This document shows, one piece after another, positions 14,246-61,652 of a DNA stretch of 64,000 nucleotides. Each line of letters begins with the position of its first letter. Positions within the stretch are counted from its first letter, which is position 1. The notes beneath the pieces are model-generated. The model made no database searches. It was not told the DNA's origin and was given only the letters and a program-made list of their open reading frames with translations. The stretch is from NCBI RefSeq assembly GCF_056712565.1, contig NZ_CM160072.1, one strand, 5' to 3'. The position numbers and the translations under genes were made by a program.

Positions 14246-14267
14246 TTTTCGCCTCGTGGTTCGGGTG

Positions 14268-14351
<84 letters not shown>

Positions 14352-14355
14352 CAGC

Positions 14356-17597: not shown

Positions 17598-18046
17598 GCG
17601 TTGTCTCCGCGAACCATCGTAAAGAAGTCGACCCGGCTGGCGTTCACTTCGGCCTGGCGCGCGGCAATGCGTGCCATACGGTCAGCGTCCAGCGGGGTGA
17701 TAAGGGTTTCTGATAAGTTTTGAAAGTGGCGGTTTTGCTGCATCAGCGCATCAATCAGCGCACAACGTTCGGCGTGCTGTTTGTCGCGCCCCAGCACCCA
17801 GCTATAGCCGAGCGTGCCGTCAGTCAGACGCACGGCGGCGCGGGTGAGCGTGGCGTCGCCAGCAAAAAAGCGTTCGCCGGTGCCGCCCATTCGCGCCTGA
17901 ATCTGCACCAGGCCAGTTTCAGCGGCGCGGATCACCTCATAATCGGCGTTGATGTTCAGCGCGTTCAGGCGGGCTGCCAGTTCAGCCGGTTGGCTGTGCG
18001 CCAGCACGGACATCCAGTGCTGGCGGGTCGCGGTATCTGCGTGCAT
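17594..18046 (-). CDS. phnG: C-P lyase core subunit PhnG
   Basis: 150-aa ORF; operon position. Confidence 0.9.
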
Positions 18047-22148: not shown

Positions 22149-22228
<80 letters not shown>

Positions 22229-22242
22229 CGATCACAATACAA

Positions 22243-29796: not shown

Positions 29797-31436
29797 TCAC
29801 TCACTCTCCTGCAAGTTTGCAGAATATCATCCGCAGCCTGGTAATACTTCGTCTCAACGCCAGTCAGGCCCAATAAGGTTGAGAATAAGTTGTCTTGTGA
29901 ATAGTGTTGCGTTTGCGCCTGTTTTTGCAGGCAGTTCTGGTCAACCTGATACCGTTTTTGATAATCCTCCGATAGCCACAGCAGCATCGGCACCTGTTTT
30001 TGGCTATCCGGGGCGATGGCATAAGGCAGACCGTGCAGATAGATGCCATTTTCACCTAACGATTCACCGTGGTCAGAAAGATAAACCAGGCTGGTGGTAA
30101 ATTTATCCTGATGTTCTTTCAGCAGATTAATCGCTTTATCAACAATATAGTCGACGTAAACCAGCGTGTTGTCGTAAGTGTTCACCAGTTGCTCTTGGGT
30201 ACAGGTCTGGATCTCGTTAGTGTCGCAGGTTGGGGTAAATTTCCTGAACTGCGGCGGATAGCGGTTGTAATAGGTCGGGCCGTGGCTGCCGATAGTGTGT
30301 AATACAATGAGGCCATCGCTTTGCAGATTATTGATGTACTCTTCCAGCCCGTGGAACAGCACTTCGTCATAGCATTCGCCGTTGATGCACTGACCAGGCA
30401 GGTTCAGCGCGGTGACGTTCTGGTGAGGTACGCGATCGCAAACGCCTTTACAGCCGCCATCGTTGTCATTCCACAGCACGTTGATGCCCGCTCGCTGAAT
30501 GATATCCAGCACGCCTTCCTGGTGCTGTGCCAGCTCTTCTTTGTAGTGCTCACGCGGCATATCCGAGAACATGCACGGCACTGAGACGGCTGTTGCTGTG
30601 CCACAAGAGGCGGTATTAGGGAAATAGACCACGTTATCTTTTGCCAGGCGAGGATTGGTTTCGCGTGGATAACCATTCAGCGAGAAATTCTCTGCGCGCG
30701 ACGTTTCTCCGACGATCAAAATGGTCAGGTTTTTGCGTTTCCCATTTTGCATTAATGGGTTGCGGTGAGCATCTTCACCAATGCGTATCAGTGGCAGGTT
30801 GGCTGACCGCTGGTGAGAGTACCACGACCAGCTAGCAACAATGCTGTTGGACGGGCTTAAGGATTTCACCAGTTCTTTGTTGTTGCGAAACAGCGATGCA
30901 TAGTCTTTGTAGAACAGTGCGGCAACCAGCAGAATCAGCAGTACAGAAATCAGGATGTTGGCCCCGCGGAAAAGAACGCTGCGCAGGCGTGAGGTGGTGG
31001 GTTTGATTTTGATCCAGCAGGCAATCAGCGCAGCAAGCACGCCGCTGAATCCCAGCGTTAATAACATTTGCGGCGTCATCAACGCATAACTTTCTGCCGG
31101 AGTGGTATCAATAATATTGGCAATCATCGAGCGGTCGATGACGATGCCGTAAGTCATTATGAAATATTGTGCAGCCGCGCCAACCAGAATAAACAGGCAG
31201 GCCAGCGGTCGATTAAGCCACAAGAAAGAGCTTAGTGTCAGGACAATATTAATCACGCTGAAGGCGACGACCGGCATCGACAAGAAAACCAGTACGTTAT
31301 GCAGCGAGTCCAGCGGCAGCGCCTGCAACACCTGTTTAAAAAAGGCAATATTCAGGCAGATAGAGATATAAAAAGCGGCTAACAATAGCCAGGCGAGTAA
31401 ATTCAAAGAGGGTCTTTTTAGTAGGCGCTTCAACAT
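29793..31436 (-). CDS. eptA: Lipid A phosphoethanolamine transferase EptA (PmrC)
   Basis: ORF 29793..31481; start at [14 protein letters not shown] (cat 31434-31436); N-terminal TM segments plus sulfatase-like domain; overlaps basR. Confidence 0.92.
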
Positions 31437-31539: not shown

Positions 31540-32877
31540 TTAATCTTTGCTTATTGGTGCATCTAAGGGATACGGGTTTTTATGCAGCCGGTTGTAATTC
31601 AGCGCATACATGGCGGTGATTACCATCAGAGTGACAAATGACCACATAACCTCTTTCGCGCCGGACCCTACTACGGCCCAGATGCAGTAGAGGAAGGCAA
31701 TGGTAGTCACTGCCAGATATGCCGGGCGTGCTTTACCAAAGTGACCGTGGCCGAGCAGTAGTAACGCCGCACAGGTGTAAAGATATGGCACCAGTGTAAA
31801 GATGACCGACACGGAAGAAACCAGACCGAATTCTTTGGTCGCGTTTGGCGAAATGCTACTGAGCTGGAAGATGGTCATCAAAATACCGACGATAATCAGC
31901 CCCGCCACTGGCGTGCCCGCTTTATTTACACGGGCAAAAATCGGTGGGAACAGTCCGTCATCGGCAGCGGCTTTCGCCGTTTGACCCGCCAGCAACGTCC
32001 AGCCGCCCAGTGAACCTAAGCAACCCGCAGCTGCGCAGAAGGAAACAATGGCCCCGGCGGTGTCACCCAACGCCATCCGTGCGGCATCACCGAATGGCGA
32101 AGCAGAAACGCGCAGTGCGGCATTAGGGATCATCCCCATAATCGCGGTGGTAGAAAGTACATAGCAAACGGCAGCAATCAATACCCCGCCAATGGTGGCG
32201 ATAGGGACGTTGCGTTTCGGGTTTTTCACCACACCTGCGGCAACGGAGGCACTTTCCACACCGATGAACGACCACAGCGTAACGTTAAGGGTACTTTGAA
32301 TCGCACCGAAGGTGCCCAGGCCGCTGACGTTCCATGCCGCCATATAGGTTTCACCACGGAACCAGAACCAGCCAAATACGGCAATCCCGACGATGGGGAT
32401 CAGCGCCAGCACGGTAGCAACGGCCTGTACGCGGGTGATCATTTTCGGACCGACAATGTTCAGCAGGACGAAGATCCACAGCACCACGACGCAGGTGATG
32501 GTTAATACCAATGGATCTTTCAGAATCGGGAAGAAGTAACTTAAATATCCTACGCCAATGACCACCATAGCGATATTGCCGATCCAGCAGGCCAGCCAGT
32601 AGAGGACGTTGGTTTGATAACCGAGAAACGGGCCAAAGCAGCGGCGGGCGTAAGCGTAAGAACCACCAGGACTTGGGTCGAGGAACGACATTTTGGCGTA
32701 TACCATCGAGAGCCCCAGCGCACCGATAATCGTCACCAACCATCCATAAATGGCAATCCCGCCAGTGGAGGCCAGGTTTGCAGGTAACAGAAAAACACCT
32801 GACCCCATAATATTCCCCGACACCATCAGGGTGACGGGGATTAAGCCCACTTTGTGAGCATCAGCATCCGAAGACAT
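31540..32877 (-). CDS. adiC: Arginine:agmatine antiporter AdiC (APC family)
   Basis: 445-aa polytopic membrane ORF. Confidence 0.93.
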
Positions 32878-33013
32878 AATTAAACTCCTGCGAAGGCGAG
32901 CTTCGTGACAATAAATTACGTCATATCATACGCCTGCATTCGATAGTTGAATTATTATCGGCCGGGTTATCGCTGATGCCGTTATTAATATAGCTCTTCG
33001 TTAAGGTTAAAAA

Positions 33014-33775
33014 TCAGGCGACAGTGCGTTCTCTGTGCTGACTAACATAATGCAGCGGCGTCATACCGTAGAAGTCTTTAAAGACAGAAATAAAGTACGA
33101 CGTACTGTTGTAGCCGCAGGACTGTGATACCTGAGAGATATTTTTACCGTCCATCATTAATTCATTTACGGCATAACGCATGCGGCAGGTGGTGATTATT
33201 TGGCTATAACTGGTGTTTTCGCTTTTCAGCTTTTTCTTTAACAGACTTGGGCTAAGACATAAACAACTGGCTACCATACTAAGATTCCAGTCTTTGTGGA
33301 TATCGCTTTCAATAATTTGATAAACGCTGTCACTTACACAATTACGTAACATATACATCATTAGTGAAAGGAATTTTTTACTGTCGAGAAAACGGGATAG
33401 CACAGTGAATAATAATGCACGTGTTCGTTCCTTTTCTGACTCAGTTTCAGCGGGCATCATGCTATGCTGCGCGGCAACGCGAAAGACGTCTGGCGTCAGG
33501 CATGGCAGGGTGAGGATGGGCGTAGCGCTACGTTGCCATACTGGTATTTGCGAGAGATCTTTATTCAGAAACCGGAGGTAATCTTTGATGATGTCGTGAC
33601 TAATATGAGCAACCAAAGTGTTATTAAGAGAGGAGACGTCGATAATATTATTTTCACAATTTAATAACGCCATGTGGTTAGCTTTAAGGCTAATAGGTTC
33701 TTTCCCATTCACCCTTATCCAGACATCTTTTTCAGTCAATAAAACAATACAAGGTTGGTCGCTGCAAATCCTCAT
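33014..33775 (-). CDS. adiY: AraC-family regulator AdiY
   Basis: 253-aa ORF with C-terminal AraC HTH. Confidence 0.9.
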   Translation of the reverse strand: MRICSDQPCIVLLTEKDVWIRVNGKEPISLKANHMALLNCENNIIDVSSLNNTLVAHISHDIIKDYLRFLNKDLSQIPVWQRSATPILTLPCLTPDVFRVAAQHSMMPAETESEKERTRALLFTVLSRFLDSKKFLSLMMYMLRNCVSDSVYQIIESDIHKDWNLSMVASCLCLSPSLLKKKLKSENTSYSQIITTCRMRYAVNELMMDGKNISQVSQSCGYNSTSYFISVFKDFYGMTPLHYVSQHRERTVA

Positions 33776-34110
33776 ACATGTACTCCTGAGTGCGAATAAA
33801 AGACCAGTTCTCGCTAAAGCGAAGCGATACCGGGAAATGGTTATATAATTGTATGATGAATATAAACATGCATAAAAATAACGAGTTTTACTAATATTAC
33901 AAATTTTTATAGTAATTTCTCATGTACATATTTTTTTACAGGCTAAAAAAAGGATAAATAACAGGCAAAAAAAAGCGCGGGGTGGGACCGCGCAAAAAGC
34001 ATGACATTTTTTGTTTGCAGCAATTTTTATGAAAACGTTGCCATACTTAAAAGGCCTCAAGCCAGGCGGCGTAATGTTATTTAACAATTACGCCTTCAGC
34101 GGAATAGTGG

Positions 34111-36381
34111 TTACGCTTTCACACACATAACGTGGTAAATACCGTCAATAATTTCTGTCCCTTCTGTTTCGTGTTCAAATCCAGGGAAATGATGGTCCCA
34201 GGATTGCAGCGAGCGTAAATAACTTACTTGCGGACTGTTTTTATCGCCGAAGTTTTCACCAGACAGCAGCATCGGGATTCCTGGCGGATACGGGATAACT
34301 GAGTTTGCCGCGATACGTCCTGGCAGATTTTCAATGGATACCAGTTCGACATTGTTGTCGACAATCGCGTTGTACGCTTCACGCGGGGTGATTTCCGCCA
34401 CCGGTAGGCCGGAATAGGCTTCATTCAACCGTGCGCCAGGGTTGTTTTCTTTCAGCCAGGCAAACATGGTGTCACCCAGATCGTGAATCCCTATGTTCGC
34501 GTAAGTGTCAGGATATTGTTCAACAAGTTCCGGCATCACCTGCGCCAGCGGTGTGTTGGCATCATAGTGGCGTTTGAAGGAGCAAAGGGTGTTAACCAGA
34601 GTCCCCCATTTCCCACGGGTCACGCCCATAGAGAACAGGAACATAATCTGGAAGTCAGTGGTACGGGTAGGCACAATGCCGTGGCGACCAAGCCAGGCTG
34701 TGACCAGCGCCGCCGGAACACCGGTTTCTTCCAGTTCACCATCTTCACCCATTCCCGGAGCAAGGATGCTGACTTTAATCGGGTCGAGCATACTCCAGTT
34801 ATCCGGAATATCTTTGAAGCCGTGCCAGCTTTCGCCCGGATGCATGACCCAGCAGTCCTGAACGGTGGTCAGCAGTTTGGTTGGTGCGTCAGCAAAGTCA
34901 TAGGTTTTGCCGGTTTGTGGGTCGGTGACGACTTCTTTGTTCCACGGTTTGAAGAACCAGCTACCGTCAGCGGTGAACTCTTTATACAGCCGCGCCATCG
35001 CCTGACGGAAATCAACCGCTTCGTCGATCACTTCCTGGGTCAGTGACAGGCCGCTGTTGCCGTCCATCATCGACACTGCCACGTCGTTGGATGCGCAGAT
35101 GGCATACAGCGGGGAGGTGGTGGCATGCATCATGTAGGCCTGGTTGAAGCGGGAGAAGTTAATCGCCCCACGACCTTCACGTACATGAATATAAGAGGCC
35201 TGGGACAGCGCATTCAGCAGTTTGTGGGTGGAGTGGGTGGCGAAAACGGTAGGACCGTTGTGATCGCCAGGTTCGCCGCGCATGGCATAGTGATCGGCAT
35301 AGATCGGGTTGAAACGTGCATAGCCGTACCAGGCTTCGTCAAAGTGCAGACGATCGGAGGTTTTTTCCAGCAGATCCTGCGCTTCTTTAGCGTTATAACA
35401 CACGCCGTCATAGGTACAGTTGGTCACCACGCAGTAAGACGGTTTTTGCCCGACTTTGTCTTTGGTCAGCGGGCTTTCACTGATTTTCTTCTGCAAGGTT
35501 TCAGGTTGCATTTCCTGCGGATAGATTGGCCCGATAATGCCGTAGCGGTTGCGGCTTGGCACCATGTAGACCGGTTTCGCGCCTGTCAGCATCAAGCCTT
35601 GTTCGATGGATTTATGGCAGTTACGGTCAACGACCACGACATCGTTATCGGTCATGCAAGCCTGCATGATGGTGCGGTTAGAGCCGGAAGTACCGACGAC
35701 TACCGACCAGGAGCGATCGGCACCAAATACGCGTGCGGCATATCTTTCGCTTTCGCCAAATGCGCCAGTATGGTCAAGCAAAGAACCGAGGGAAGTGCGT
35801 TCGATGCCCATGTCGGTGCGGAACAGATTTTCACCATAGTAGTCATGGTAGAAACGTCCGGCGGGTGTTTTGGTAAAACCAACGCCGCCCTGGTGGCCTG
35901 GCGCTGCCCAGGAATATTCATGGATGTCGCTATATTTCATCAGCGCGCTGAACAGTGGCGGCAATAGCTGCTGGCGGTAGCGGGTCATCGCGGCAACGGC
36001 GCGTCCGGCGATAAAGTCGGCAGTATCTTCCAGAATCCAGGCGAATTCATCGACAAGCTCCAGCAGGTCGCGATCCATTGCGGCGAGGGCTTTTTCCCGA
36101 TCGCCCAACAGGAAGACCGGCACGTTTTGTTGGCGCTCATGAAGCTTACCGATCAATTGTCTGACGTTTTGATGTTCGTCCGGATGTTCCATTTGATAGC
36201 TGAACATCAGGCAGTCAATGGCTTCGTTTGAAGAGAGAATGGCAAAACCATCATCAAAGGAGGTGGATTTAATCACGGTAACATTTTGCTGGCTTAAAGC
36301 ATCTGCCAGACGCTCAACGGCGTTACCGACCCAGGTGTCTTGATGGAGAAACTCGCTTTCAACAATTAATACTTTCATCAT
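34111..36381 (-). CDS. adiA: Biodegradative arginine decarboxylase AdiA
   Basis: 756-aa ORF; fold-III PLP decarboxylase (STHKLL), same family as CadA. Confidence 0.93.
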   Translation of the reverse strand: MMKVLIVESEFLHQDTWVGNAVERLADALSQQNVTVIKSTSFDDGFAILSSNEAIDCLMFSYQMEHPDEHQNVRQLIGKLHERQQNVPVFLLGDREKALAAMDRDLLELVDEFAWILEDTADFIAGRAVAAMTRYRQQLLPPLFSALMKYSDIHEYSWAAPGHQGGVGFTKTPAGRFYHDYYGENLFRTDMGIERTSLGSLLDHTGAFGESERYAARVFGADRSWSVVVGTSGSNRTIMQACMTDNDVVVVDRNCHKSIEQGLMLTGAKPVYMVPSRNRYGIIGPIYPQEMQPETLQKKISESPLTKDKVGQKPSYCVVTNCTYDGVCYNAKEAQDLLEKTSDRLHFDEAWYGYARFNPIYADHYAMRGEPGDHNGPTVFATHSTHKLLNALSQASYIHVREGRGAINFSRFNQAYMMHATTSPLYAICASNDVAVSMMDGNSGLSLTQEVIDEAVDFRQAMARLYKEFTADGSWFFKPWNKEVVTDPQTGKTYDFADAPTKLLTTVQDCWVMHPGESWHGFKDIPDNWSMLDPIKVSILAPGMGEDGELEETGVPAALVTAWLGRHGIVPTRTTDFQIMFLFSMGVTRGKWGTLVNTLCSFKRHYDANTPLAQVMPELVEQYPDTYANIGIHDLGDTMFAWLKENNPGARLNEAYSGLPVAEITPREAYNAIVDNNVELVSIENLPGRIAANSVIPYPPGIPMLLSGENFGDKNSPQVSYLRSLQSWDHHFPGFEHETEGTEIIDGIYHVMCVKA

Positions 36382-36576
36382 TGCTTACCCGGTTATGAAG
36401 GAATCTTCGTTGCGGGCAAGTATCTTCCGGCCTTTTCGGGCTGTAAAGCGCGTGAAAAACAAACATTTTTGAAATATTTATTTTTATAAACAACACGTTA
36501 TGTGATTATTTTAAATTATTTTCACTGCTTATTATCGACGGCTAAACTATTTTTTTGGCTGATACTGATATCGTCT

Positions 36577-37485
36577 TTAGCCGGGAAACGTCTGGCGGCG
36601 CTGTTGGCTAAGTTTGCGGTATTGTTGCGGCGACATGCCGACATATTTGCCGAACGTGCTGTAAAAACGGCTACTCGAACGAAAGCCTGCCGTCAGGGCA
36701 ATATCGAGAATACTTTTATCGGTATCGCTCAGTAACGCGCGAACGTGGTTGATGCGCATCGCGGTAATGTACTGTTTCATCGTCAATTGCATGACCCGCT
36801 GGAATATCCCCATTGCATAGTTGGCGTTAAGTTTGACGTGCTCAGCCACATCGTTGATGGTCAGCGCCTGATCATAGTTTTCGGCAATAAAGCCCAGCAT
36901 CTGGCTGACATAAAATTGCGCATGGCGCGAGACGCTGTTTTTGTGTGTGCGCGAGGTTTTATTGACCAGAATCGGTTCCCAGCCAGAGAGGCTAAATCGC
37001 TTGAGCATCAGGCCAATTTCATCAATGGCGAGCTGGCGAATTTGCTCGTTCTGACTGTTTAATTCCTGCTGCCAGCGGCGCACTTCAAACGGGCTAAGTT
37101 GCTGTGTCGCCAGTGATTTGATCACCATGCCGTGAGTGACGTGGTTAATCAGGTCTTTATCCAGCGGCCAGGAGAGAAACAGATGCATCGGCAGATTAAA
37201 AATCGCCATGCTCTGACAGGTTCCGGTATCTGTTAGTTGGTGCGGTGTACAGGCCCAGAACAGCGTGATATGACCCTGATTGATATTCACTTTTTCATTG
37301 TTGATCAGGTATTCCACATCGCCATCGAAAGGCACATTCACTTCGACCTGACCATGCCAGTGGCTGGTGGGCATGATATGCGGTGCGCGAAACTCAATTT
37401 CCATCCGCTGGTATTCTGAATACAGCGACAGTGGGCTACGGGTCTGCTTTTCGTCGCTGCTGCACATAAACGTATCTGTATTCAT
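36577..37485 (-). CDS. melR: AraC-family melibiose operon activator MelR
   Basis: 302-aa ORF; divergent from melA. Confidence 0.92.
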   Translation of the reverse strand: MNTDTFMCSSDEKQTRSPLSLYSEYQRMEIEFRAPHIMPTSHWHGQVEVNVPFDGDVEYLINNEKVNINQGHITLFWACTPHQLTDTGTCQSMAIFNLPMHLFLSWPLDKDLINHVTHGMVIKSLATQQLSPFEVRRWQQELNSQNEQIRQLAIDEIGLMLKRFSLSGWEPILVNKTSRTHKNSVSRHAQFYVSQMLGFIAENYDQALTINDVAEHVKLNANYAMGIFQRVMQLTMKQYITAMRINHVRALLSDTDKSILDIALTAGFRSSSRFYSTFGKYVGMSPQQYRKLSQQRRQTFPG

Positions 37486-37767
37486 GGATGACTCTCTTTC
37501 CTGGAATATCAGAATTATGGCAGGAGTGAGGGAGGATGACTGCGAACAGGCGCACGGTTTTATTCCTCTCCCTGGAGGTGCGAGGAGAGCGGATGAGAAG
37601 ATTTGGGTCGATTATTCAGCTTTTCAGGTAATTTATTCCCATAAACTCAGATCTATTGATGTGCCACTTAGGATCTGAGTTTTCGGGAATGCTCAACCGG
37701 GAAACCGGAGGTTTTCTGCGATATCGCCTGCCATGATGAAGTTATTCAAGCAAGCCAGGAGATCTGC
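37486..37767. promoter_or_regulatory. melR-melA divergent promoter region
   Basis: 282-bp intergenic region between divergent melR and melA; individual sites not mapped here. Confidence 0.5.
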
Positions 37768-39123
37768 ATGATGTCTGCACCCAAAATTACATTTATCGGC
37801 GCTGGTTCGACGATTTTCGTTAAAAATATTCTTGGTGATGTGTTCCATCGAGAGGCGCTGAAAACGGCGCATATTGCCCTGATGGATATCGATCCCACCC
37901 GCCTGGAAGAGTCGCACATTGTGGTGCGTAAGCTGATGGATTCAGCAGGGGCCAGCGGCAAAATCACCTGCCACACCCAACAGAAAGAAGCCTTACAGGA
38001 TGCTGATTTTGTGGTGGTGGCATTTCAGATTGGCGGTTATGAACCTTGCACGGTGACTGATTTCGAGGTCTGTAAGCGGCATGGTCTGGAACAAACCATT
38101 GCCGATACGCTGGGGCCGGGCGGCATTATGCGTGCGCTACGTACCATTCCGCACCTGTGGCAGATTTGCGAGGACATGACGGAAGTCTGCCCCGATGCCA
38201 CCATGCTCAACTACGTTAATCCAATGGCGATGAATACCTGGGCGATGTATGCCCGCTATCCGCATATCAAGCAGGTAGGGCTGTGCCATTCGGTGCAGGG
38301 AACGGCGGAAGAGCTGGCGCGTGACCTCAATATCGACCCGGCTACGCTGCGTTACCGTTGCGCAGGTATCAACCATATGGCGTTTTACCTGGAACTGGAG
38401 CGCAAAACCGCCGACGGCAGTTACGTGAATCTCTACCCGGAACTGCTGGCGGCTTATGAAGCAGGGCAGGCACCGAAGCCAAATATTCATGGTAATACTC
38501 GCTGCCAGAATATTGTGCGTTACGAAATGTTCAAAAAGCTGGGCTACTTCGTCACAGAATCGTCAGAACATTTTGCTGAGTACACACCGTGGTTTATTAA
38601 GCCAGGTCGTGAGGATTTGATTGAGCGTTATAAAGTACCGCTGGATGAGTACCCGAAACGCTGCGTCGAGCAGCTGGCGAACTGGCATAAAGAGCTGGAG
38701 GAGTATAAAAACGCCTCCCGGATTGATATTAAACCGTCACGGGAATATGCCAGCACAATCATGAACGCTATCTGGACTGGCGAGCCGAGTGTGATTTATG
38801 GCAATGTCCGTAACGATGGCTTGATTGATAACCTGCCACAAGGATGTTGCGTGGAAGTGGCCTGTCTGGTTGATGCTAATGGCATTCAGCCGACCAAAGC
38901 CGGTACGCTACCTTCGCATCTGGCCGCCCTGATGCAAACCAACATCAACGTACAGACGCTGCTGACAGAAGCTATTCTTACGGAAAATCGCGACCGTGTT
39001 TACCACGCCGCGATGATGGACCCGCATACTGCCGCCGTGCTGGGCATTGACGAAATATATGCTCTTGTTGACGACCTGATTGCCGCCCACGGCGACTGGC
39101 TGCCAGGCTGGTTGCACCGTTAA
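37768..39123 (+). CDS. melA: Alpha-galactosidase MelA (GH4, NAD/Mn-dependent)
   Basis: 451-aa ORF MMSAPKITFIGAGSTIFVKNILGDV..., Rossmann GAGS motif. Confidence 0.93.
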   Translation: MMSAPKITFIGAGSTIFVKNILGDVFHREALKTAHIALMDIDPTRLEESHIVVRKLMDSAGASGKITCHTQQKEALQDADFVVVAFQIGGYEPCTVTDFEVCKRHGLEQTIADTLGPGGIMRALRTIPHLWQICEDMTEVCPDATMLNYVNPMAMNTWAMYARYPHIKQVGLCHSVQGTAEELARDLNIDPATLRYRCAGINHMAFYLELERKTADGSYVNLYPELLAAYEAGQAPKPNIHGNTRCQNIVRYEMFKKLGYFVTESSEHFAEYTPWFIKPGREDLIERYKVPLDEYPKRCVEQLANWHKELEEYKNASRIDIKPSREYASTIMNAIWTGEPSVIYGNVRNDGLIDNLPQGCCVEVACLVDANGIQPTKAGTLPSHLAALMQTNINVQTLLTEAILTENRDRVYHAAMMDPHTAAVLGIDEIYALVDDLIAAHGDWLPGWLHR

Positions 39124-39770
39124 GGGGTAATCGCTTCCGGCGCTCTGGTGATTAAGCCAAAGCGCCGTAGCTGGCGGCAATGAAAGCGGGCGAGGAATAT
39201 CACCGTCGTTAATGCGCCCAGTAGTGCGCAGAACATATCGGATTGCGTATCCCACGGGTCGCCTTGAGTACCGAGAAAATCATCTGCGCCCTGGCCCATT
39301 GCCAGCGCTGCCCACCACTCGATTAACTCATACATCGCGCTTATCGCCAGCGCGACACAACAGACCAGAAACGCCACCATTTTACGCCCGCGAACGTACA
39401 TCCCGCGCACGAGGATCTCTCGTGCCACCAGTGCAGGCACCAGCCCCTGGAAAAAATGCCCCAGTTTATCATACGGATTACGGCTCAACCCCAGCCATTC
39501 CTGCACCTCAAAACCAACGGGGACTTTCGCGTAGGTGTATTGCCCGCCGACCATCAGGATGATGGCGTGAAAGAAAATGAGCGTATAGAGCAGCGGCGTT
39601 AACGGGTAACGTTTAGCGGTGGCAAGCAGTAGCGGCACGACAATAATCACCGGTGTCACTTCCATCAGCCAGGTGAGTTTGTCATGGGCCGAAATGCCGG
39701 TATAAATCAGGATTAACGTTAGCGCCAGTGCGCCGGTGTTAAGAATTAACGGCTTGAGTGTGCGGGTCAT
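39120..39770 (-). CDS. yjdF: Inner membrane protein YjdF
   Basis: 216-aa hydrophobic ORF; its stop codon overlaps the melA stop; true start may be a few codons downstream. Confidence 0.8.
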   Translation of the reverse strand: MTRTLKPLILNTGALALTLILIYTGISAHDKLTWLMEVTPVIIVVPLLLATAKRYPLTPLLYTLIFFHAIILMVGGQYTYAKVPVGFEVQEWLGLSRNPYDKLGHFFQGLVPALVAREILVRGMYVRGRKMVAFLVCCVALAISAMYELIEWWAALAMGQGADDFLGTQGDPWDTQSDMFCALLGALTTVIFLARFHCRQLRRFGLITRAPEAITP

Positions 39771-39856
39771 GGTGAGTTCGCAAGTCAGGGAAAATACTGA
39801 CTATTGACCAGTAAGCGTGAAATTACAATCGCAAAAGAGGTGGCCCAGGGGGATCA

Positions 39857-39876
39857 CCTGGCAGCATGCTGCCAGG
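39857..39876 (-). terminator. Perfect 20-bp palindrome downstream of fumB, probable terminator
   Basis: cctggcagcatgctgccagg, 17 nt after the fumB stop. Confidence 0.45.
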
Positions 39877-39892
39877 CGCTGGGCCGAAGAGG

Positions 39893-41539
39893 TTACTTAG
39901 TGCAGTTCGCGCACTGTTTGTTGACGATCTGCTGGAAGAAGTCGTTACCTTTGTCATCGACCAGGATAAACGCCGGGAAATCTTCTACTTCGATTTTCCA
40001 GATAGCTTCCATACCCAGCTCCGGATAAGCGACGCATTCCAGATGCTTGATGCTCTGCTGCGCCAGTACCGCCGCCGGACCGCCGATGCTACCGAGGTAG
40101 AAGCCGCCGTGTTTATGGCACGCGTCGGTAACCTGCTGGCTGCGGTTACCTTTCGCCAGCATGATCATGCTGCCGCCGTGGGATTGCAGCAGATCCACGT
40201 AGGAGTCCATACGACCTGCGGTGGTTGGGCCAAGTGAACCTGATGGATAACCGGCAGGCGTTTTCGCCGGACCCGCGTAGTAGATCGGGTGATCTTTGAT
40301 GTACTGCGGCAGTTCTTTACCGGCGTCAATCAGCTCTTTCAGCTTGGCGTGTGCAATATCGCGACCCACGATAATGGTGCCGGTGAGCGACAAGCGGGTG
40401 GATACCGGGTATTGCGAAAGCTGGGCAAGGATCTCTTTCATCGGGCGGTTAAGGTCGACTTTCACTGCTTCGCCTTCACCTGCCTGACGCAGTTCTTCTG
40501 GAATGTACTGGCCTGGATTGTGTTCCAGTTTTTCGATCCAGATACCTTCGCGGTTGATTTTCGCTTTAATGTTACGGTCAGCGGAGCAGGAGACTCCCAT
40601 GCCTACCGGGCAGGATGCGCCGTGACGTGGCAGACGGATAACGCGGATGTCGTGCGCGAAGTATTTACCGCCAAACTGCGCGCCAAGACCGAGTTTCTGG
40701 GCCTCTTCCAGCAGTTCCTGTTCCAGCTGGATATCGCGGAACGCCTGACCATGTTCGTTCCCTTCCGTCGGCAGTTCATCGTAATAGTGAGCGCTTGCTA
40801 ACTTGACGGTTTTCAGGTTGGTTTCCGCAGACGTACCGCCAATCACAAACGCGATATGGTACGGCGGGCAGGCTGCAGTACCGAGGGTACGCATTTTCTC
40901 GACGAGGAAGTTTTTCAGTTTGCCGGGCGTCAGCAGGGCTTTGGTTTCCTGGTAGAGATACGTTTTGTTGGCAGAGCCGCCGCCTTTAGCGACACAGAGG
41001 AATTTGTACTCATCGCCATCTACCGCGTACAGGTCGATTTGCGCAGGCAGGTTCGTGCCGGTGTTGACCTCTTTATACATGTCCAGCGGCGCGTTCTGTG
41101 AATAGCGCAGGTTATCTTCGATATAGGTGTTATAGACGCCTTTCGACAGCGCTTCTTCATCACCGCCACCGGTCCACACGCGCTGACCTTTTTTACCGAC
41201 GATGATCGCGGTGCCGGTATCCTGGCAGGTCGGCAGCACGCCTTTAGCGGCGATTTCGGAGTTTCTTAAGAATTGCAGCGCCACGTACTTGTCGTTTTCG
41301 CTGGCTTCTGGATCGTGAAGAATAGCCGCAACCTGTTTCTGGTGTGCCGGGCGGAGCATGAAAGAAGCGTCGTGAAAGGCTTGCTGCGCCAGCAGGGTCA
41401 GGGCTTCTGGTTCCACTTTCAGGATGGTTTCGCCGTCGAAGTCGGCAACGCTAACGTAATCAGAAGTGAGTAGATAGTATTCGGTATTGTCTTTCCCCAT
41501 CGGGAAAGGTGCCTGGTAGATAAAGGGTTTGTTTGACAT
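39893..41539 (-). CDS. fumB: Class I fumarate hydratase FumB (Fe-S, anaerobic)
   Basis: 548-aa [27 protein letters not shown]... Confidence 0.93.
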
Positions 41540-41616
41540 AGCTTCCAGCCTGTAACTCTGTATTTGTTATTCGAAAATGGCGTGCCGCGTAGTCACGGGC
41601 GGCACGCAAAGTGCAT

Positions 41617-42957
41617 TTATAAGAACCCGTACATCGCGGCGAAGATCCAGCCGAAGACGCACGATACGCTCACACCAATCAACCCCGGCAGAATAAAGCT
41701 GTGGTTGATGACGAAGCGACCGATGTGGGTGGTGCCGGAACGGTCAAACTGAATCGCTGCCAGATCGCTCGGATAAGTCGGCAGGATGTAATAACCGTAG
41801 CAAGCCGGTGCTGAAGCCACGATGTATGCCGGATCAACGCCGATCGCCAGCGCGACCGGAACAATCGCCGCCAGCGCCGCAGCCTGAGAGTTTACAAACT
41901 TGGAAACCAGCAGCAGAACAATGGCATAGGCCCACGGATACTCTTTCACCATTTCACCCAGTACGCCCTGAATTTCAGACATATGCGCACCGAACATGGT
42001 TTCAGCCATCCATGCGATACCGTACACCGCCACGATGGCGATCATACCGGAACGGAAGACTTCGTTTTTTGAGATAGACGCGGGATTGGTTTTGGTCAGG
42101 ATAATAATCAGCGCCCCGGTCAGCAGCATAAACATCTGAATAACCAGTACCATCGACAGCGGTTTGCCGCCGAAGGATGGACGCAGGTCCGAATCAGCAC
42201 CAAGAAGGGCGACTACAGCGATTGCCCCGAGGAAGATCCACATTGCCAGCCAGTTGCTTTTCGGCAGTTTTTTATCCAGCAGCGTCGCGGTATCACCGTA
42301 AACATACTCACGGTTTTCCGGTACGGAGATGAATTTTTGGAACTCTTCGTCTTTATCCAGATCTTTACCGCGGAACCAGCTGAAGATACCGATCGCCAGG
42401 ATACCGATTAACGTCGATGGAATGGTGATTGCCAGCAGGTCGAGGAACTCAAGATGGCGACCATCAAAGGTGACATTACCCAGCATCGCAACCAAAGATA
42501 CGACCGCAACCGACACCGGACTGGCGATAATCCCCATCTGTGCACCGATAGAACTTGCCGCCATCGGACGTTCCGGACGGATGTTGTTCTTAATAGCAAC
42601 GTCGTAGATGATCGGCAGAATGGTGTAAACCACATGACCCGTACCGCAAAGAATGGTCAGCGTACAGGTCACAAACGGCGCGACAATTGAGACATATTTC
42701 GGGTTGCGACGCAGCAGCTTCTCGGCAATTTGCAGCATGACATCAAGACCGCCCGAAGCTTGCAAGGTCGCCGATGCCGCCACCACCGCAATGATAACCA
42801 GCATGACATCAACCGGTGGTTTACCTGGCTGAAGGTGGAAGACGAAGACCAGAATGACCAGACCGATACCGCCTAATAAACCCAGCGCGATACCCCCCTT
42901 TCTGGCACCATAAAACAGACATATCAGTATTATGATAAGTTGGATAGTAAATAACAT
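41617..42957 (-). CDS. dcuB: Anaerobic C4-dicarboxylate transporter DcuB
   Basis: 446-aa polytopic membrane ORF. Confidence 0.93.
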
Positions 42958-43527
42958 GTGTGAACCCTCGCGATAATCCTATTTAAATTTTTGCTGAATA
43001 GATCACAGTCACGTTCTGTTTTGTATGAACTGTTTTCAGAGCCTGACTAAATATCCGTTTGGTCGTTACCGGCTTGAGCAAATACCTCACAGTGAATATT
43101 GGCTGATTAAAGCAGCGGCAAATTTATGCACTGTGATAAGCGGCTTTTTCAGAGAGAAAGACTCTCTGGCGATGGGTTTATAGTTTGTACAGCGCAGATG
43201 TTAATGTTTTGTTTGCTGTTATCTTATTGATATTTATCGGTCTGTTTTTTGTTCTCAGGGCAGGTATCATTAGGTTTATAGATTAATCTGATCTACCCAT
43301 TTGTGGGTAAAAATACACATAATGTGGGTGACATAATAGTTAATTAACTTTTGTTAGCGTTTTGAAATTAAAAACACCGTTCATCTGAAGAGATATTAAT
43401 TTTTAGCGATGATGGAGGGATAATTATATTTGATCTGGCACAAGTTTTACTGATGAACGATGTAACTTGTGCCAGGGGGATTTTGCATTACGGTAATAAT
43501 TATTACTTACAGATAACCAGCGATCCG
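42958..43527 (-). promoter_or_regulatory. Long AT-rich dcuB upstream regulatory region
   Basis: 570-bp AT-rich non-coding stretch between dcuR stop and dcuB start; individual sites not mapped here. Confidence 0.5.
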
Positions 43528-44247
43528 TTATTGGCAATATTGTTTCAGTAGTGAGTAGTGTTCTGCCTGAATACGGTAACGGTAAACCGGACGCCCCGTG
43601 ACGCCATAATGGATACTGGTGAACAATATGTGGCAGTTGACCAGCCAGATAAGGTATTTACGGCAGGAAACACGCGAGATGTTAACCTCGTTAGCCAGCT
43701 CGTCGGTTGAAAACTCATAGTCCTGATGCGCGTCAATCCACTGGCACAGCGTGCGTAACGTCTGCGGCGTTAAGCCTTTTGGCAAGCGACGAGGATCCTG
43801 CTCGTTGGAGCTGCTGCCGTGGATTAGCTGATCAAGCTCGGCCTGGTCATAATACTGATGTTTTTCCAGCGCCATTTTCTTTTGCCGCCAGCCGGTGAGC
43901 GCCTCTTCAAAGCGGGAAGCCTGGAAGGGTTTGATCAGGTAATCCACAACACCGTAATGCAGCGAATCTTTAATGGTTACTGCATCGGCAGCGGAGGAGA
44001 TGACAATCACATCACTTTTGCAACGCGCGTTATGCAGGACAGGCAGTAAATCGAGCCCGTTCTCTTTTTGCATATAGATATCTAGCAATATCAGGTCGAT
44101 AGGCGTATCGCTATTGAAGATAATCTCTTTGGCTTTCTCCAGCGTCGAAGCCGTTCCACAGCATTGAAAGCCCGGGATTTGTGCCACGTATCGGCGATTC
44201 AGCTCCGCGACCATTGCGTCGTCATCGATAATTAATACATTGATCAT
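43528..44247 (-). CDS. dcuR: Response regulator DcuR (CitB family)
   Basis: 239-aa ORF MINVLIIDDDAMVAELNRRY... Confidence 0.93.
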   Translation of the reverse strand: MINVLIIDDDAMVAELNRRYVAQIPGFQCCGTASTLEKAKEIIFNSDTPIDLILLDIYMQKENGLDLLPVLHNARCKSDVIVISSAADAVTIKDSLHYGVVDYLIKPFQASRFEEALTGWRQKKMALEKHQYYDQAELDQLIHGSSSNEQDPRRLPKGLTPQTLRTLCQWIDAHQDYEFSTDELANEVNISRVSCRKYLIWLVNCHILFTSIHYGVTGRPVYRYRIQAEHYSLLKQYCQ

Positions 44248-45875
44248 CTGTTCGACCTCTCCCCGTCCCAGGGTATCTGGACAAAAAATTGTGTGAAAAT
44301 CCCGGGTTCCGATTCCACGGCGATGCTGCCGCCGAGATTTTCTACCTGTTGTTTGACAAGTGCTAAACCGACGCCTCGCTCGCTTCCTTTTGTCGAGACA
44401 CCTTTGTCAAAAATGTGATCGATTTTGTCGGGTGCGATCCCCGGTCCATCATCGTTAACTTCGCAGTGCAGCCAGCCGTGACGGTAGTGCAATGTTACGC
44501 TAATTTCGCCACCGGGTTCCGGTCCTAATGCCTCCAGCGCGTTTTCTATCAGATTTCCCAACGTGGTAATCAGCGTCGCGACCTGATCCTCACTACCGCT
44601 GTCTGGCAGCTGGCTTTCACTGTTTAAAATCAGCGTATGGCCTAAATCGGTCGCGCGGTTAATCTTGCTGATTAAAAAACCAGCGATAACCGGAGATTTG
44701 ATCTTACCCAGCAGAGAGCCAATCTCTTCCTGATAGTTATTGGCTGTTTTGAGAATGTAATCTTCCAACTGCTTATAACTCTTCAGATGCAATAATCCGA
44801 GAATCACATGCAATTTATTCATAAATTCGTGGGATCGTTCACGAAGTGCGTCAGCATAGTTGACCAGACCGTCGAGTCGCTGCATCAGTTTACGTACTTC
44901 AGTTTTGTCCCTGAAGGTTGAAATGGCACCGATGATAACGCCATTACTGCGCACCGGAACGGTGTTGATCAGTAATAGTCGGTCCTTAATCGTAATCTCT
45001 TCGTCGCGGCGTGGGGTTCCGTCGCGTAACACTTCCGAGACATCTACCACCTGTGACCACGAGTGGCTTAGCGTCGACAGTTTCTCATCGTCCTGCGACT
45101 TACGGTAATTCAGCAATTCTTGTGCGGCATCGTTGATCAGCGTGACCTCGCCGCGATCGTCCACGGCAACGACGCCTTCTTTGATGGACTGCAACATGGC
45201 CTGGCGTTGCTCAAACAGTGTGGAGATTTCGTAGGGTTCCAGGCCGAAAAGGATTTTTTTCAGTACGTTAACCAGAATGCATGTGCCGATCAGTCCGACC
45301 AGCATGCCAAATAGTACCGACCAGATAATGCTCCAGCGACTGTCATTGATCTGTTGGGTCACGCGGCTTAACTCAAGGCCGATCGCCACCACGCCAATTT
45401 GTTTATGATTTTCATCGTAGATGGGGGTAAATACGCGTAAAGCCTGCGCCAGAAAACCGCGATTGATAGCGACATTTTCTTCGCCATTCAGCGCTTTAAG
45501 GATGTCATCACCTTTAAATGGCTGACCAATACGCTGGGCTTCAGGATGCGAGTAGCGAAGGCTTTGCATATCGGTAACGACAATAAACAGCAGATCGTTG
45601 CGTTTGCGCACGGCTTCCGCGATGGCCTGGATTCCACTCTCCTGCGGTTTTTTCTGCAAGCCCTGACGGATTTCCGGCGAGTCGGCGAGGGTACGCGCTA
45701 CTGCCAGTGCCTTGTTAGCTAGCCCGTCTCGCGTCATATCACTGATTTGCGAGAAGTAAATCAGATGCACCACCAATAGCACCGAGAACAGTACCGCGCT
45801 GACCATTAAGATCACAGTGGTACTCAATTTCATCGGACGTTTGCGTAACATACGGTAGGGCAATGAATGTCTCAT
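44244..45875 (-). CDS. dcuS: Sensor histidine kinase DcuS
   Basis: 543-aa ORF; two TM segments, periplasmic PAS, kinase domain; overlaps dcuR start. Confidence 0.93.
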   Translation of the reverse strand: MRHSLPYRMLRKRPMKLSTTVILMVSAVLFSVLLVVHLIYFSQISDMTRDGLANKALAVARTLADSPEIRQGLQKKPQESGIQAIAEAVRKRNDLLFIVVTDMQSLRYSHPEAQRIGQPFKGDDILKALNGEENVAINRGFLAQALRVFTPIYDENHKQIGVVAIGLELSRVTQQINDSRWSIIWSVLFGMLVGLIGTCILVNVLKKILFGLEPYEISTLFEQRQAMLQSIKEGVVAVDDRGEVTLINDAAQELLNYRKSQDDEKLSTLSHSWSQVVDVSEVLRDGTPRRDEEITIKDRLLLINTVPVRSNGVIIGAISTFRDKTEVRKLMQRLDGLVNYADALRERSHEFMNKLHVILGLLHLKSYKQLEDYILKTANNYQEEIGSLLGKIKSPVIAGFLISKINRATDLGHTLILNSESQLPDSGSEDQVATLITTLGNLIENALEALGPEPGGEISVTLHYRHGWLHCEVNDDGPGIAPDKIDHIFDKGVSTKGSERGVGLALVKQQVENLGGSIAVESEPGIFTQFFVQIPWDGERSNR

Positions 45876-56765: not shown

Positions 56766-56787
56766 TGGTGCCGGACTCGGAATCGAA
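56766..56787 (-). repeat. Degenerate copy of the 3' end of tRNA-Phe: att-site direct repeat marking the island boundary
   Basis: tggtgccggactcggaatcgaa is the reverse complement of the last 23 nt of E. coli tRNA-Phe (TTCGATTCCGAGTCCGGGCACCA) with one C missing; no upstream tRNA body follows. Confidence 0.75.
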
Positions 56788-56980
56788 TATTTTATTTATC
56801 ATATTGATATTGATGTGATTTATTTGGTTTGGTGAAAAATGTACCCTCTTTTGTACCCTCAGTCCCTTTTGCTGTGAAAAAGGAATCAAACCCGGGAGTT
56901 GGAAGATGAGGTGAAAAGGGGGACGCATAAAGGGATTCACCTTAACAGCGTACTACTGTTAAGGTGGGAGGACCATCTCA

Positions 56981-57544
56981 TTATCCCCACCGGTCCCATC
57001 TCACCAGGTTGTTGATGATAATTTTATTACTAAATTTGCAGGGCGGCCTGGTTTTGTAATCCCGGCTCAGTCCTCTGAAGGCATTGATCTCCCCCCGCTC
57101 AAACAGCTCATCCTTATTCTGGTGCAGTTGTTTAAATGTGCTCAGAATGTTCGCTTCGCTGATTTCCGGAAAATTATCATATTCCAGTGACCTGAACCCT
57201 GTATCACGTGCCTGTGCATCCATTAAGGAAAACATCCCGGAACGCTGCATCAGGTTACGCCAGATTTCGCGCTCAAGATTCCGGGTAATGGCTTTCATTG
57301 CTGTTTCTGGTTTCTCCATCATCCAGCAACCACAGCGAAAATTCTGTTTCATCGCCCAGTCCGGGGCGGCTTTACCGCCAATATTTTCCGTCAGTGCTGA
57401 GATTTCTGTCAGTTGCCGGATAAGCGTGTCGATTTGCAGTAGTGTACTCTTTCGTACAGCCAGGATGTGTCTGATACTTGTGGAACAGATAACGGCTGTA
57501 TGCCCGTTGACCGCGTTCGGGTGGGGGATTGTGATATCTGACAT
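56981..57544 (-). CDS. Hypothetical island-terminal protein (possibly DUF4942-like)
   Basis: 187-aa ORF, last gene before the island boundary; family assignment uncertain. Confidence 0.45.
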   Translation of the reverse strand: MSDITIPHPNAVNGHTAVICSTSIRHILAVRKSTLLQIDTLIRQLTEISALTENIGGKAAPDWAMKQNFRCGCWMMEKPETAMKAITRNLEREIWRNLMQRSGMFSLMDAQARDTGFRSLEYDNFPEISEANILSTFKQLHQNKDELFERGEINAFRGLSRDYKTRPPCKFSNKIIINNLVRWDRWG

Positions 57545-57628
57545 TATGAGGTTTCCTTTCTGTTTATAAACGAAAACGCCAGCCCTGTTCAGGCTGGCGT
57601 CAGGAGAATGGAGTCTGGTGAGTGAGAT

Positions 57629-58051
57629 TCACCGGTTCTGGTGCATAAGTTGCAGTTGGTGCAGGGTACGGATATCCTCCCTGGCCTGTTCAATACAGGG
57701 CAGCAGTGCTGCCGAATCCGTTTTATCCTCATCGTTGTCGAAAATAATTCCGGACCCGCAGTCGATATTGTCCTGCAGCCACGCAATGAGGATATCCAGC
57801 GCTGTTTCAGTGGTTAATGGCATCACGCTCTGTATCACTGTATTGTCTTCCGGCAACTGATGAGGGCTGGCATAAGTTGCCGGTGTTTCGGTAGAGTCAC
57901 GGTCATCCACCACGCGGAGTGAATCACCGTTTTCAGCGGCCTTATTAATCAGTTCAGCGAGATTAACACCATCAATGTCAACGACAATTCGCCCCATATT
58001 CAGTGCCTGTACGTTAACGCTGTCGGCTTCCGGCGTCAGGGAAAGTTTCAT
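57629..58051 (-). CDS. YeeW-like protein
   Basis: 140-aa ORF immediately downstream of, and overlapping by 4 nt, the CbtA-like toxin gene. Confidence 0.6.
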   Translation of the reverse strand: MKLSLTPEADSVNVQALNMGRIVVDIDGVNLAELINKAAENGDSLRVVDDRDSTETPATYASPHQLPEDNTVIQSVMPLTTETALDILIAWLQDNIDCGSGIIFDNDEDKTDSAALLPCIEQAREDIRTLHQLQLMHQNR

Positions 58052-58425
58052 TGTTTCACCTCCGGGTGCTTACCCAGGATAATATTATTTACCGTTCTGT
58101 AATTGTCGCGGGTCATCAGGCCGGTCGCCCTGCGAGCCCGGAGGATATCAATACTGTTTATTAACTGAGAACGGGTACAGGCGCTGAATCCCGGCTGGTC
58201 GGTACGTACCAGTGCGTATTTTTCAACGAGAAAGTTCACCGCATCGCACAGTGAAATGCCTGCCTCAATATGCTGCTCAATCACACGTTCATCAGCGAAC
58301 GGTGTGTCATTCAGCGTAAGGCCGTAGTGCTGATCCAGCAGTCGGGTGAGCAGTGTCTGCCAGATTTCAACCGGAGACGGGCGTGAACTGGCCGCCTGCC
58401 CGGGTAATACAGGTAATGTTTTCAT
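58048..58425 (-). CDS. CbtA-family toxin (YeeV/YkfI/YpjF-like, type IV TA)
   Basis: 125-aa ORF MKTLPVLPGQAASSRPSPVEIWQTLLTRLLDQHYGLTLNDTPFADERVI... Confidence 0.8.
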   Translation of the reverse strand: MKTLPVLPGQAASSRPSPVEIWQTLLTRLLDQHYGLTLNDTPFADERVIEQHIEAGISLCDAVNFLVEKYALVRTDQPGFSACTRSQLINSIDILRARRATGLMTRDNYRTVNNIILGKHPEVKQ

Positions 58426-58513
58426 ACTGAAGATTTTCCTGATATGCAGAGATGAAAAATGGAAAAGTGGCGTGGTGAAAGCACCAGGCCGAGCAGAAGG
58501 TTATTCTGGAGAG

Positions 58514-58882
58514 TTACTTTTTCGTTTCGGGCGTCGGATAAACAGCCATATAAACGTAGCCACAACTGCCGAGGGTGTCGGCTTCGCAGGTCAGCCCTTT
58601 TGCATACAGCGTGACGGTATGCTGATGGCGGGGATTCAGTTCACCGCTGGTGAGCATGAGTTCCAGTTGTTTCATCAGCAGCGGAAAGGCCTGGTCCAGG
58701 TGGTACGAATCCGCGTCGCTGAACCGCCCTCTGATACCGGCGCGGTCGGCAAGGTAATGCAACCGGTTGCCTTCCTGTACCAGACGGGCACCAAAACAGG
58801 GCGTCACGGTGCAGGGCAGTCCCCACCAGGTACGGTCGTTATTGTCGTCGGGAAGCGTTGTCCCGGGGAGTGTGTCTGACAC
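58514..58882 (-). CDS. CbeA-family antitoxin (YeeU/YafW/YfjZ-like)
   Basis: 122-aa ORF MSDTLPGTTLPDDNNDRTWWGLPCTVTPCFGARLVQEGNRLHYLADRAGI..., immediately upstream of the toxin. Confidence 0.8.
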   Translation of the reverse strand: MSDTLPGTTLPDDNNDRTWWGLPCTVTPCFGARLVQEGNRLHYLADRAGIRGRFSDADSYHLDQAFPLLMKQLELMLTSGELNPRHQHTVTLYAKGLTCEADTLGSCGYVYMAVYPTPETKK

Positions 58883-58961
58883 GATAAAATCCTCACAGAA
58901 AATTGGTTAAGAATGGTCCGGTGGTGGCGATAATTCTGCTCTTCTGAATGCCCTTCCAGAC

Positions 58962-59183
58962 TCAGTTCAGGGTGACGCTCATCAGCCGGACATACGGACC
59001 AAAACTGTCCTTCCGGCGTTCTGCAAACACGGCCAGCACACAGGGAATATCCTGTACTTCACGGCCGGTATATGTATCCGTGCTACCGTGCCAGCGGTAT
59101 TTACCGGTACAGAACGGAAAAAGACGGGATGCAGGATGCTGACGGTGAATACGCATGGCTTCACCACGGGTGATGATTTTCAT
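58962..59183 (-). CDS. DUF987 protein (YeeT-like)
   Basis: 73-aa ORF in the conserved position between the RadC-like and CbeA genes. Confidence 0.65.
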   Translation of the reverse strand: MKIITRGEAMRIHRQHPASRLFPFCTGKYRWHGSTDTYTGREVQDIPCVLAVFAERRKDSFGPYVRLMSVTLN

Positions 59184-59269
59184 GAGAATAGTCCTCCTGA
59201 ATGTGAAAGTAAGAAACAGCTGAGAAAGAGAAACTGAAGTGATATGAAGGTGATTGTGACGGTGACGGG

Positions 59270-59746
59270 TTAAAGCAGACCGTGTTCCGCAAAGGAGAAA
59301 ACCTGGCTGCCACCGACTATCAGATGGTCCGGCACCCGGATATCCACCAGGCCCAGTGCCTGTACCAGACGTTCCGTGATAAGGCGGTCTGCCTTGCTGG
59401 GTGTGACTTCACCGGACGGGTGATTGTGTGCCAGCACCACAGCAGCGGCATTGTGATACAGGGCGCGTTTAATCACTTCCCGGGGATGGACTTCCGTGCG
59501 GTTGATGGTGCCGGTGAAGAGGGTTTCACCGGCAATCAGCTGATTCTGGTTGTTCAGATACAGCACCCGGAACTCTTCCCGCTCCAGTCCCGCCATGTTC
59601 AGAATCAGCCATTCTCGTGCCGCACGGGTGGAGGTGAAGGCCACGCCGGGTTCATGAAGATGGCGGTCCAGGGTTTTCAGGGCCCGTTGAATGAGGCTGC
59701 GCTCACCGGGCGTCATTTCTCCGGGCAGAAAGGAAATCTGTTGCAT
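59270..59746 (-). CDS. RadC-like JAB-domain protein (YeeS/YkfG/YfjY-like)
   Basis: 158-aa ORF with JAMM/MPN motif HNHPSGEVTPSKAD. Confidence 0.8.
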   Translation of the reverse strand: MQQISFLPGEMTPGERSLIQRALKTLDRHLHEPGVAFTSTRAAREWLILNMAGLEREEFRVLYLNNQNQLIAGETLFTGTINRTEVHPREVIKRALYHNAAAVVLAHNHPSGEVTPSKADRLITERLVQALGLVDIRVPDHLIVGGSQVFSFAEHGLL

Positions 59747-59760
59747 TGTTCCGGCCCCTT

Positions 59761-60240: not shown

Positions 60241-60505
60241 GAGTGAAATCCTTACAATGTGTATAAATGAGAGGAAATAAAGGCCGGGGGCTGACAACAT
60301 CACGTTCATCACTGACCGTGAGACCCGGCAATATCAGGGATGAATGATATTCGGCTGAAATTCCGGACAGCCGTACGCGTAACCGTTCCGGTCACAGACG
60401 GATGGCCAGAAGATGCCATTGCCTGTACTCAGTCTGCACAGACTGAGTTCTCCGGGGCGTCGGGTGATTCTGGTGCCTGAATCACGCCTTCAGGGACAGA
60501 TTGCA

Positions 60506-61324: not shown

Positions 61325-61413
61325 ACTTTGCTCCTTATGAATGAATTAGCGGTATAAACGAAAAGGCCGCGTCTCCCGGAGAAGACGCGGCCTGATGGAT
61401 GAAATGAAGACGT

Positions 61414-61647: not shown

Positions 61648-61652
61648 ACCGG

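Follow-up and report, generated by a model that had tools for sequence, protein, structure and literature searches.

The mel locus of the window

The window, by which we mean the whole 64-kb stretch of DNA analyzed, encodes a melibiose (mel) locus in which melR is divergent from melA, a K-12-type layout seen directly in the window ORFs, and in which melA runs into the convergent gene yjdF. In a complete melRAB locus, the gene for the MelB symporter is expected directly 3' of melA, and it is missing here. The features of the locus are as follows:

36577–37485, minus strand: melR, AraC-family activator of the mel promoter, an intact 302-aa ORF
37486–37767, unstranded: melR-melA divergent regulatory region, with two inverted MelR-type repeats kept (ttcccataaactcagat and atctgagttt..gggaa)
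37768–39123, plus strand: melA, alpha-galactosidase, full length at 451 aa, with a TAA stop at 39121–39123
39120–39770, minus strand: yjdF, DUF2238 inner-membrane protein, in a 216-aa form, convergent with melA
39120–39146, minus strand: altered yjdF 3' end, with Arg for Gly209, seven added codons (APEAITP) and a new stop overlapping the melA stop
39124–39143, unstranded: junction filler of 20 nt, GGGGTAATCGCTTCCGGCGC, standing in place of 1,665 bp of K-12
39138–39167, unstranded: junction-spanning hairpin with a 7+4 bp stem, one arm made of filler and the first yjdF-homologous bases, the other of native yjdF coding sequence
39893–42957, minus strand: fumB and dcuB, the collinear right-hand context

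Each protein of the core locus matches its expected family. MelR belongs to the NCBIfam equivalog NF007693 (635 bits against a cutoff of 253), MelA to NF011657 (734 bits against a cutoff of 486) and YjdF to NF007369 (467 bits), a model that spans only residues 1–208. The melA sequence is identical to that of UTI89, where it carries the RefSeq label melA. The initial annotation had proposed that the enzyme and its activator are retained, and both are intact and full length by ORF and family match. It had also described overlapping melA and yjdF stop codons; the ORF listing and translation place these exactly where it did, in the tetranucleotide TTAA at 39120–39123, the yjdF stop reading TTA on the plus strand at 39120–39122.

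We determined the breakpoints by BLAST and manual alignment against K-12 MG1655 (NC_000913.3, 4339000–4349000). Apart from melB, the order adiA-melR-melA-yjdF-fumB-dcuB is collinear with K-12, and the BLAST alignments bear out what had been claimed of the surrounding genes. The left alignment covers 37500–39123 of the window and ends exactly at the melA stop; the right alignment covers 39144–40000, starting one base past the yjdF stop. The breakpoints, which the initial annotation had left to a reference alignment, are thus fixed at 39123 and 39144, bounding the 20-nt filler. The 1,665 bp of K-12 replaced by the filler comprise a 102-bp melA-melB spacer with a hairpin, melB itself (1,422 bp), a REP-containing melB-yjdF spacer and the yjdF stop, for a net loss of 1,645 bp. 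The absence of melB is borne out both by this alignment and by tblastn, which found no MelB-like coding sequence in the 64-kb window (best E = 0.36). The locus had been described as a clean deletion of about 1.5 kb. A genuine deletion it is, by the outgroup polarity given below, and of about 1.65 kb, but it is not clean, as it left filler behind and removed the yjdF stop.

Since the native yjdF stop is deleted, YjdF reads on and gains a seven-residue tail. The K-12 protein ends in ..GLITG at 209 aa and the window protein in ..GLITRAPEAITP at 216 aa; aligned at the common residues, the window ending is ..LITRAPEAITP and its K-12 counterpart ..LITG. The final eight residues fall outside the NCBIfam family model. 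Among the outgroup and Escherichia loci compared, the 216-aa tail was seen only in melB-less Escherichia.

At the junction, the filler bases CCGGCGC and the first yjdF-homologous bases pair with native yjdF codons, and the region 39095–39185 has a predicted fold of -43.6 kcal/mol (z = -3.55). The hairpin is kept in 7/7 melB-less Escherichia sequences. Covariation analysis of these seven sequences found 0 compensatory pairs, and the hairpin has no T-run, which rules out a canonical intrinsic terminator; we thus see no evidence for a selected structure or a terminator at this site. As to the origin of the filler, it matches the deleted K-12 DNA solely at a 9-mer, TTCCGGCGC, which lies within the 3' arm of that DNA's spacer hairpin. 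A match of this length was reached by 50 of 500 shuffles and is not significant, leaving derivation of the filler from the K-12 spacer hairpin unsupported; for a microhomology- or hairpin-mediated deletion, too, this 9-mer is the sole breakpoint match.

The junction is typical of phylogroup B2

A contiguous melA-yjdF junction, at 95–100% identity, is present in 1,263 of 5,426 complete E. coli genomes. UTI89, S88, APEC O1, IHE3034, NU14 and the type strain ATCC 11775 match positions 38300–39900 at 100% identity, and LF82 is junction-positive as well. These named strains are classical members of phylogroup B2. The window itself very probably comes from a phylogroup-B2 E. coli and is 100% identical to ATCC 11775 at both stretches tested. 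The junction share (23%) is in line with the share of B2; EC19 and E67, also melB-less, have K-12-like promoter and yjdF alleles. DNA of melB is present in 4,137 other complete E. coli genomes. Together, the two classes account for 5,400 of the 5,413 genomes in which melA or yjdF gave a match, and the junction genomes therefore carry no melB elsewhere. With nothing found by tblastn in the window either, relocation of melB is ruled out.

The absence of melB from B2 has already been published. Table 5 of Touchon et al. (2009, PLoS Genet, PMC2617782) names melB as one of the genes that group B2 specifically lacks, and the pathway associations given by Touchon et al. (2020, PMC7314097) include a negative one between B2 and genes of melibiose degradation. 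The observation that melB is lost is thus correct but ordinary: the loss is real and no assembly error, but it does not belong to this strain, as it is B2-wide and is also found in non-coli Escherichia. The initial annotation had named native adjacency of melA and yjdF as grounds against its reading, and the two genes are indeed neighbors throughout B2 and in several non-coli Escherichia lineages. As a fixed metabolic difference between the mostly extraintestinal-pathogenic B2 strains and other E. coli, melB absence can serve to mark the lineage and to inform metabolic models.

The regulatory region between melR and melA has a distribution of its own. The MelR-type inverted repeats are conserved relative to K-12, one of them with 2 substitutions. 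A central block (~37545–37720) shows 79.4% identity to K-12 over 201 nt; the adjoining melR differs by 1.1%. This allele occurs at 95% identity or more in ~1,030 genomes, including Nissle 1917, ATCC 25922, ST131 and ATCC 11775, and a K-12-like block is found in melB-less EC19 and E67 and in the non-coli Escherichia lineages. With a promoter allele ~20% diverged from K-12 over 200 nt, regulation of mel may differ in most B2 strains.

Some of the melB-positive E. coli carry an inactivated melB. We observed insertions of IS5 (ISEc35), IS1A and IS3 (ISEc52) in the gene and an internal stop in melB of a strain labeled 042 (CP042934).

Polarity of the deletion and independent losses of melB

We assessed polarity in one genome per species with MelA, a total of 80 loci in which gene order was determined by tblastn. 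The order melR-melA-melB-yjdF is found in C. gillenii, C. amalonaticus, C. portucalensis, C. braakii and Kluyvera, and in Salmonella the order is melA-melB-fumB. YjdF of Citrobacter and Kluyvera is 205–210 aa long with a K-12-like end. As these outgroups have both melB and a K-12-like YjdF end, the window shows a derived state, reached by a deletion that included the yjdF stop. The melB-less state is, to judge by gene order, a true deletion and not a primitive absence. We also considered whether the mel flanks are an unusually divergent import. This is ruled out, as they differ from K-12 by 2.7–5.3% per kb, within a range of 0.6–9.5% for the window.

Loss of melB has also occurred outside Escherichia. 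In five Citrobacter genomes (C. youngae and spp. MGH106, Res13, Cu233 and wls619), melR-melA is followed by yjdF-fumB-dcuB. The junctions in these loci (L014, L023, L028, L029 and L074, at ~7350–7430) are of two types, each with a REP-like palindrome, and the native 210-aa YjdF end is kept. Because the junctions are different and the YjdF end is native, these are separate events, and on this comparison Citrobacter has lost melB independently, at least twice. Near melR-melA, we found no MelB-like gene in Raoultella or Klebsiella oxytoca-group genomes. Loss of MelB is evidently easy and common.

The same junction in other Escherichia lineages

Three further Escherichia genomes share both the gene order and the junction of the window: E. 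whittamii Sa2BVA5, SCPM-O-B-8794 (labeled 'E. coli' but a separate species representative) and Escherichia sp. E1V33. Each aligns as a single HSP over 31766–45116 of the window at 91–93% identity, making these lineages 7–9% diverged from it. Their filler is that of the window with 1–2 substitutions, and their YjdF is 216 aa long. Since lineages this diverged carry the junction, the deletion took place before E. coli diversified. The window differs by 1.8% from K-12 in the 3' half of melA, versus 8.4–9.0% from the three other lineages, which argues against recent transfer of the junction from them; the flanking genes of the window likewise cluster with other E. coli.

A fourth lineage carries a derivative of the junction. 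In 19KM2326N (NZ_CP151038.1, L091, 5700–6100; also L093–L097), adiA lies directly beside yjdF. This genome lacks melR and most of melA but keeps the last ~33 nt of melA, its stop, a more diverged filler and the 216-aa YjdF. The lineage is ~8–12% diverged from E. coli and has many public assemblies. Twelve RefSeq records labeled E. coli match at only 80–90%, and the one examined, 19KM2326N, has the adiA-yjdF arrangement. The record GCA_000155105.1 holds a protein identical to that of the 19KM2326N-like lineage; we take this record to be E. albertii TW07627, so the lineage is possibly E. albertii. The melA relic, the junction and the long YjdF together imply that melB was deleted first and that melR and most of melA followed. 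On this evidence, 19KM2326N shows a stepwise loss of the whole mel locus. The occurrence of the same junction in three lineages, and of a derivative in a fourth, is new here.

Retention or re-introduction of melB in E. coli

The melB segment itself has moved between strains. In MOD1-EC7003 (L008, 1490–3154), it is 99.3% identical to K-12 and the flanking genes are 2–4% diverged, which indicates, as judged from these distances, a recent recombinational exchange with E. coli.

An ancient junction in several lineages raises the question of whether polarity within E. coli runs the other way. Under this alternative, which we consider possible but doubtful, the ancestor of E. coli was already melB-less, B2 kept that state and non-B2 strains acquired melB anew through homologous recombination, with a melB-positive Escherichia as donor; in a variant, both alleles persisted as a trans-species polymorphism. 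The junction appears identical by descent in four non-coli Escherichia lineages and B2, as this account expects, and melB is mobile by recombination (dS of 0.015 between K-12 and MOD1-EC7003, against 0.085–0.148 for the flanks). Among the melB-positive E. coli compared, melB differs by no more than 0.9%. Beside the indel, yjdF is unusually diverged, with a dS of 0.22 between B2 and K-12 where its neighbors have 0.04–0.10. However, B2 and K-12 are only 1.8% apart in the melA 3' half that abuts the junction, and this side of it thus lacks a divergent introgressed tract. Moreover, yjdF is hypervariable in melB-positive strains too, and yjdF of melB-less E67 is closer to that of K-12 than to that of B2, indicating that yjdF alleles are shuffled across melB-positive and melB-negative backgrounds. 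Among the lineages compared, a set without E. fergusonii, E. marmotae and E. ruysiae, we recognized no donor. The distance of K-12 melB to Citrobacter, Salmonella and Kluyvera is that expected of a native Escherichia gene. We regard the wider proposition, that presence and absence of melB form an ancient polymorphism across Escherichia in which non-B2 melB was restored or maintained by inter-lineage recombination, as tentative and rather unlikely. If true, it would make the textbook melAB operon a re-introduced state within E. coli.

A source outside Escherichia was considered separately. K-12 melB is 24–26% diverged from the genes of Citrobacter, Salmonella and Kluyvera alike, ruling out acquisition of E. 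coli melB from any of the three. The ratio of melB to melA distance is 1.47–1.60 for K-12 and 1.30–1.51 among the other genera.

MelR and MelA remain under selection without MelB

We next turn to the genes that the deletion left in place. Between melB-less lineages, dN/dS is 0.012–0.026 for melA (dS 0.22–0.45) and 0.017–0.039 for melR (dS 0.2–0.45), strong purifying selection on a par with that on fumB and dcuB. Such low values in the melB-less lineages imply that melA and melR stayed useful without melB, and the mel system is probably still working there. The most likely importer of melibiose in melB-less strains is LacY. The lacY gene is present at 80% coverage or more in 5,278 of 5,426 E. 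coli genomes (97%), including CFT073, and the host routinely used as transport-negative in MelB studies has to carry delta-lacZY in addition to delta-melB (PMC8437787). The initial annotation had concluded that the strain lost its dedicated melibiose transporter. This is right insofar as melB is gone, but melibiose use need not have been lost with it, given this second route. In the searchable literature, we found no direct test of the melibiose phenotype of B2 strains, and one isolate survey was uninformative, as B2 was rare in it. According to one quoted figure, 75% of E. coli are melibiose-positive, which resembles the proportion of genomes with melB; the correspondence proves nothing.

These rates also bear on whether the locus is simply decaying, with melA and melR as functionless remnants of melB loss on their way to deletion. 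There are precedents for such a course: melR and the bulk of melA later disappeared from one junction-bearing Escherichia lineage, melB of melB-positive E. coli is itself found broken by IS5, IS1, IS3 or an internal stop, and point mutations abolished melibiose use in invasive Salmonella Typhimurium ST313 lineage 2 (PMC6333337). The 19KM2326N-type loss of melR-melA shows that MelA without MelB can become dispensable. Nevertheless, melA and melR are full length, and a dN/dS of 0.01–0.04 over a dS of up to 0.45, as low as for fumB and dcuB, is unlike that of neutral remnants, making decay very improbable for the locus as it stands. An assembly error, or a recent deletion confined to this strain, has next to no probability as the source of the junction, since nothing beyond the missing intergenic space speaks for either and the junction stands at 95–100% identity in 1,263 independently assembled complete genomes and, with substitutions, in other Escherichia lineages.

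We thus favor, with a probability of roughly 90%, the reading that the B2-typical mel locus arose by one old inherited deletion predating E. coli diversification and that MelR and MelA still work there, presumably via LacY. According to this model, a single deletion would have taken the melA-melB spacer, melB, the downstream spacer and the yjdF stop, leaving the 20-nt filler. Translation of yjdF would then have run seven codons further and ended at a stop overlapping that of melA, and the allele would have been passed on by descent from before E. coli diversified. In present-day strains, a different galactoside carrier, most probably LacY, would bring in the melibiose; with the melA promoter switched on by MelR, MelA would cleave the sugar to galactose and glucose. 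What was lost would be the dedicated Na+/H+-coupled uptake, and not necessarily the catabolic ability. Metabolic models should accordingly not score B2 as melibiose-negative from melB absence alone. Beyond what was published, the added value of the analysis is modest: the junction is defined exactly, the YjdF C-terminus is altered, the deletion is much older than B2, and the enzyme and regulator are still under selection.

Other features of the window

Homology to K-12 stops inside pheU, of which only the 3' 22–23 nt of tRNA-Phe are left (56767–56788), and ARAGORN found no tRNA genes in the whole window. The DNA past pheU encodes DUF932, WYL, GTPase-family and DUF4942 genes, and 56767–64000 occurs at 100% identity in ATCC 11775 and in several human, poultry and other animal isolates. 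This region is one end of a pheU-inserted genomic island.

Elsewhere, the phn (carbon-phosphorus lyase) operon at 11000–18000 differs from K-12 by 5.2–7.6% per kb, 2–3 times the value of most of the window. The most diverged kilobase, at 9.5%, is 30001–31000, which by coordinate offset lies in eptA (pmrC). Two spacers differ from K-12. The yjdN-yjdM spacer (22149–22232) has a ~80-bp unit once, with five K-12 matches ~100 bp apart (4325906–4326390), and the yjdP-phnP spacer (10666–10694) has ~27 bp in place of ~146 bp.

Comparison with known systems

The closest known system is the K-12 melR/melAB locus, with which the window shares MelR, MelA, a divergent promoter with MelR-type repeats, adiA upstream and yjdF-fumB-dcuB downstream. 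Unlike the window, K-12 has melB, the spacer hairpin and the REP spacer, its YjdF is seven residues shorter, and its promoter is ~20% different over 200 nt. The data taken from Touchon et al. (2009, 2020) agree with ours in that melB is absent from all B2 genomes compared and the association of B2 with the melibiose pathway is negative. Those data concern gene presence and absence; the breakpoints, the YjdF tail, the junction in other lineages and the selection tests come from the present analysis.

The laboratory host DW2 (PMC8437787) has the same melA-positive, melB-negative genotype as B2, but it is also without lacY and hence transport-negative, whereas B2 strains generally keep lacY. The Citrobacter, Raoultella and Klebsiella oxytoca-group genomes resemble the window in having melR-melA without a nearby melB; in Citrobacter, unlike the window, the junctions are REP-like and YjdF is the native 210-aa form. 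Finally, Salmonella ST313 lineage 2 (PMC6333337) is, like B2, a mainly extraintestinal or invasive lineage with an impaired mel system. There, three point mutations, in melB and melR, are the cause, and experiments demonstrated the phenotypic loss; the window, as far as its sequence tells, has the melB deletion only.
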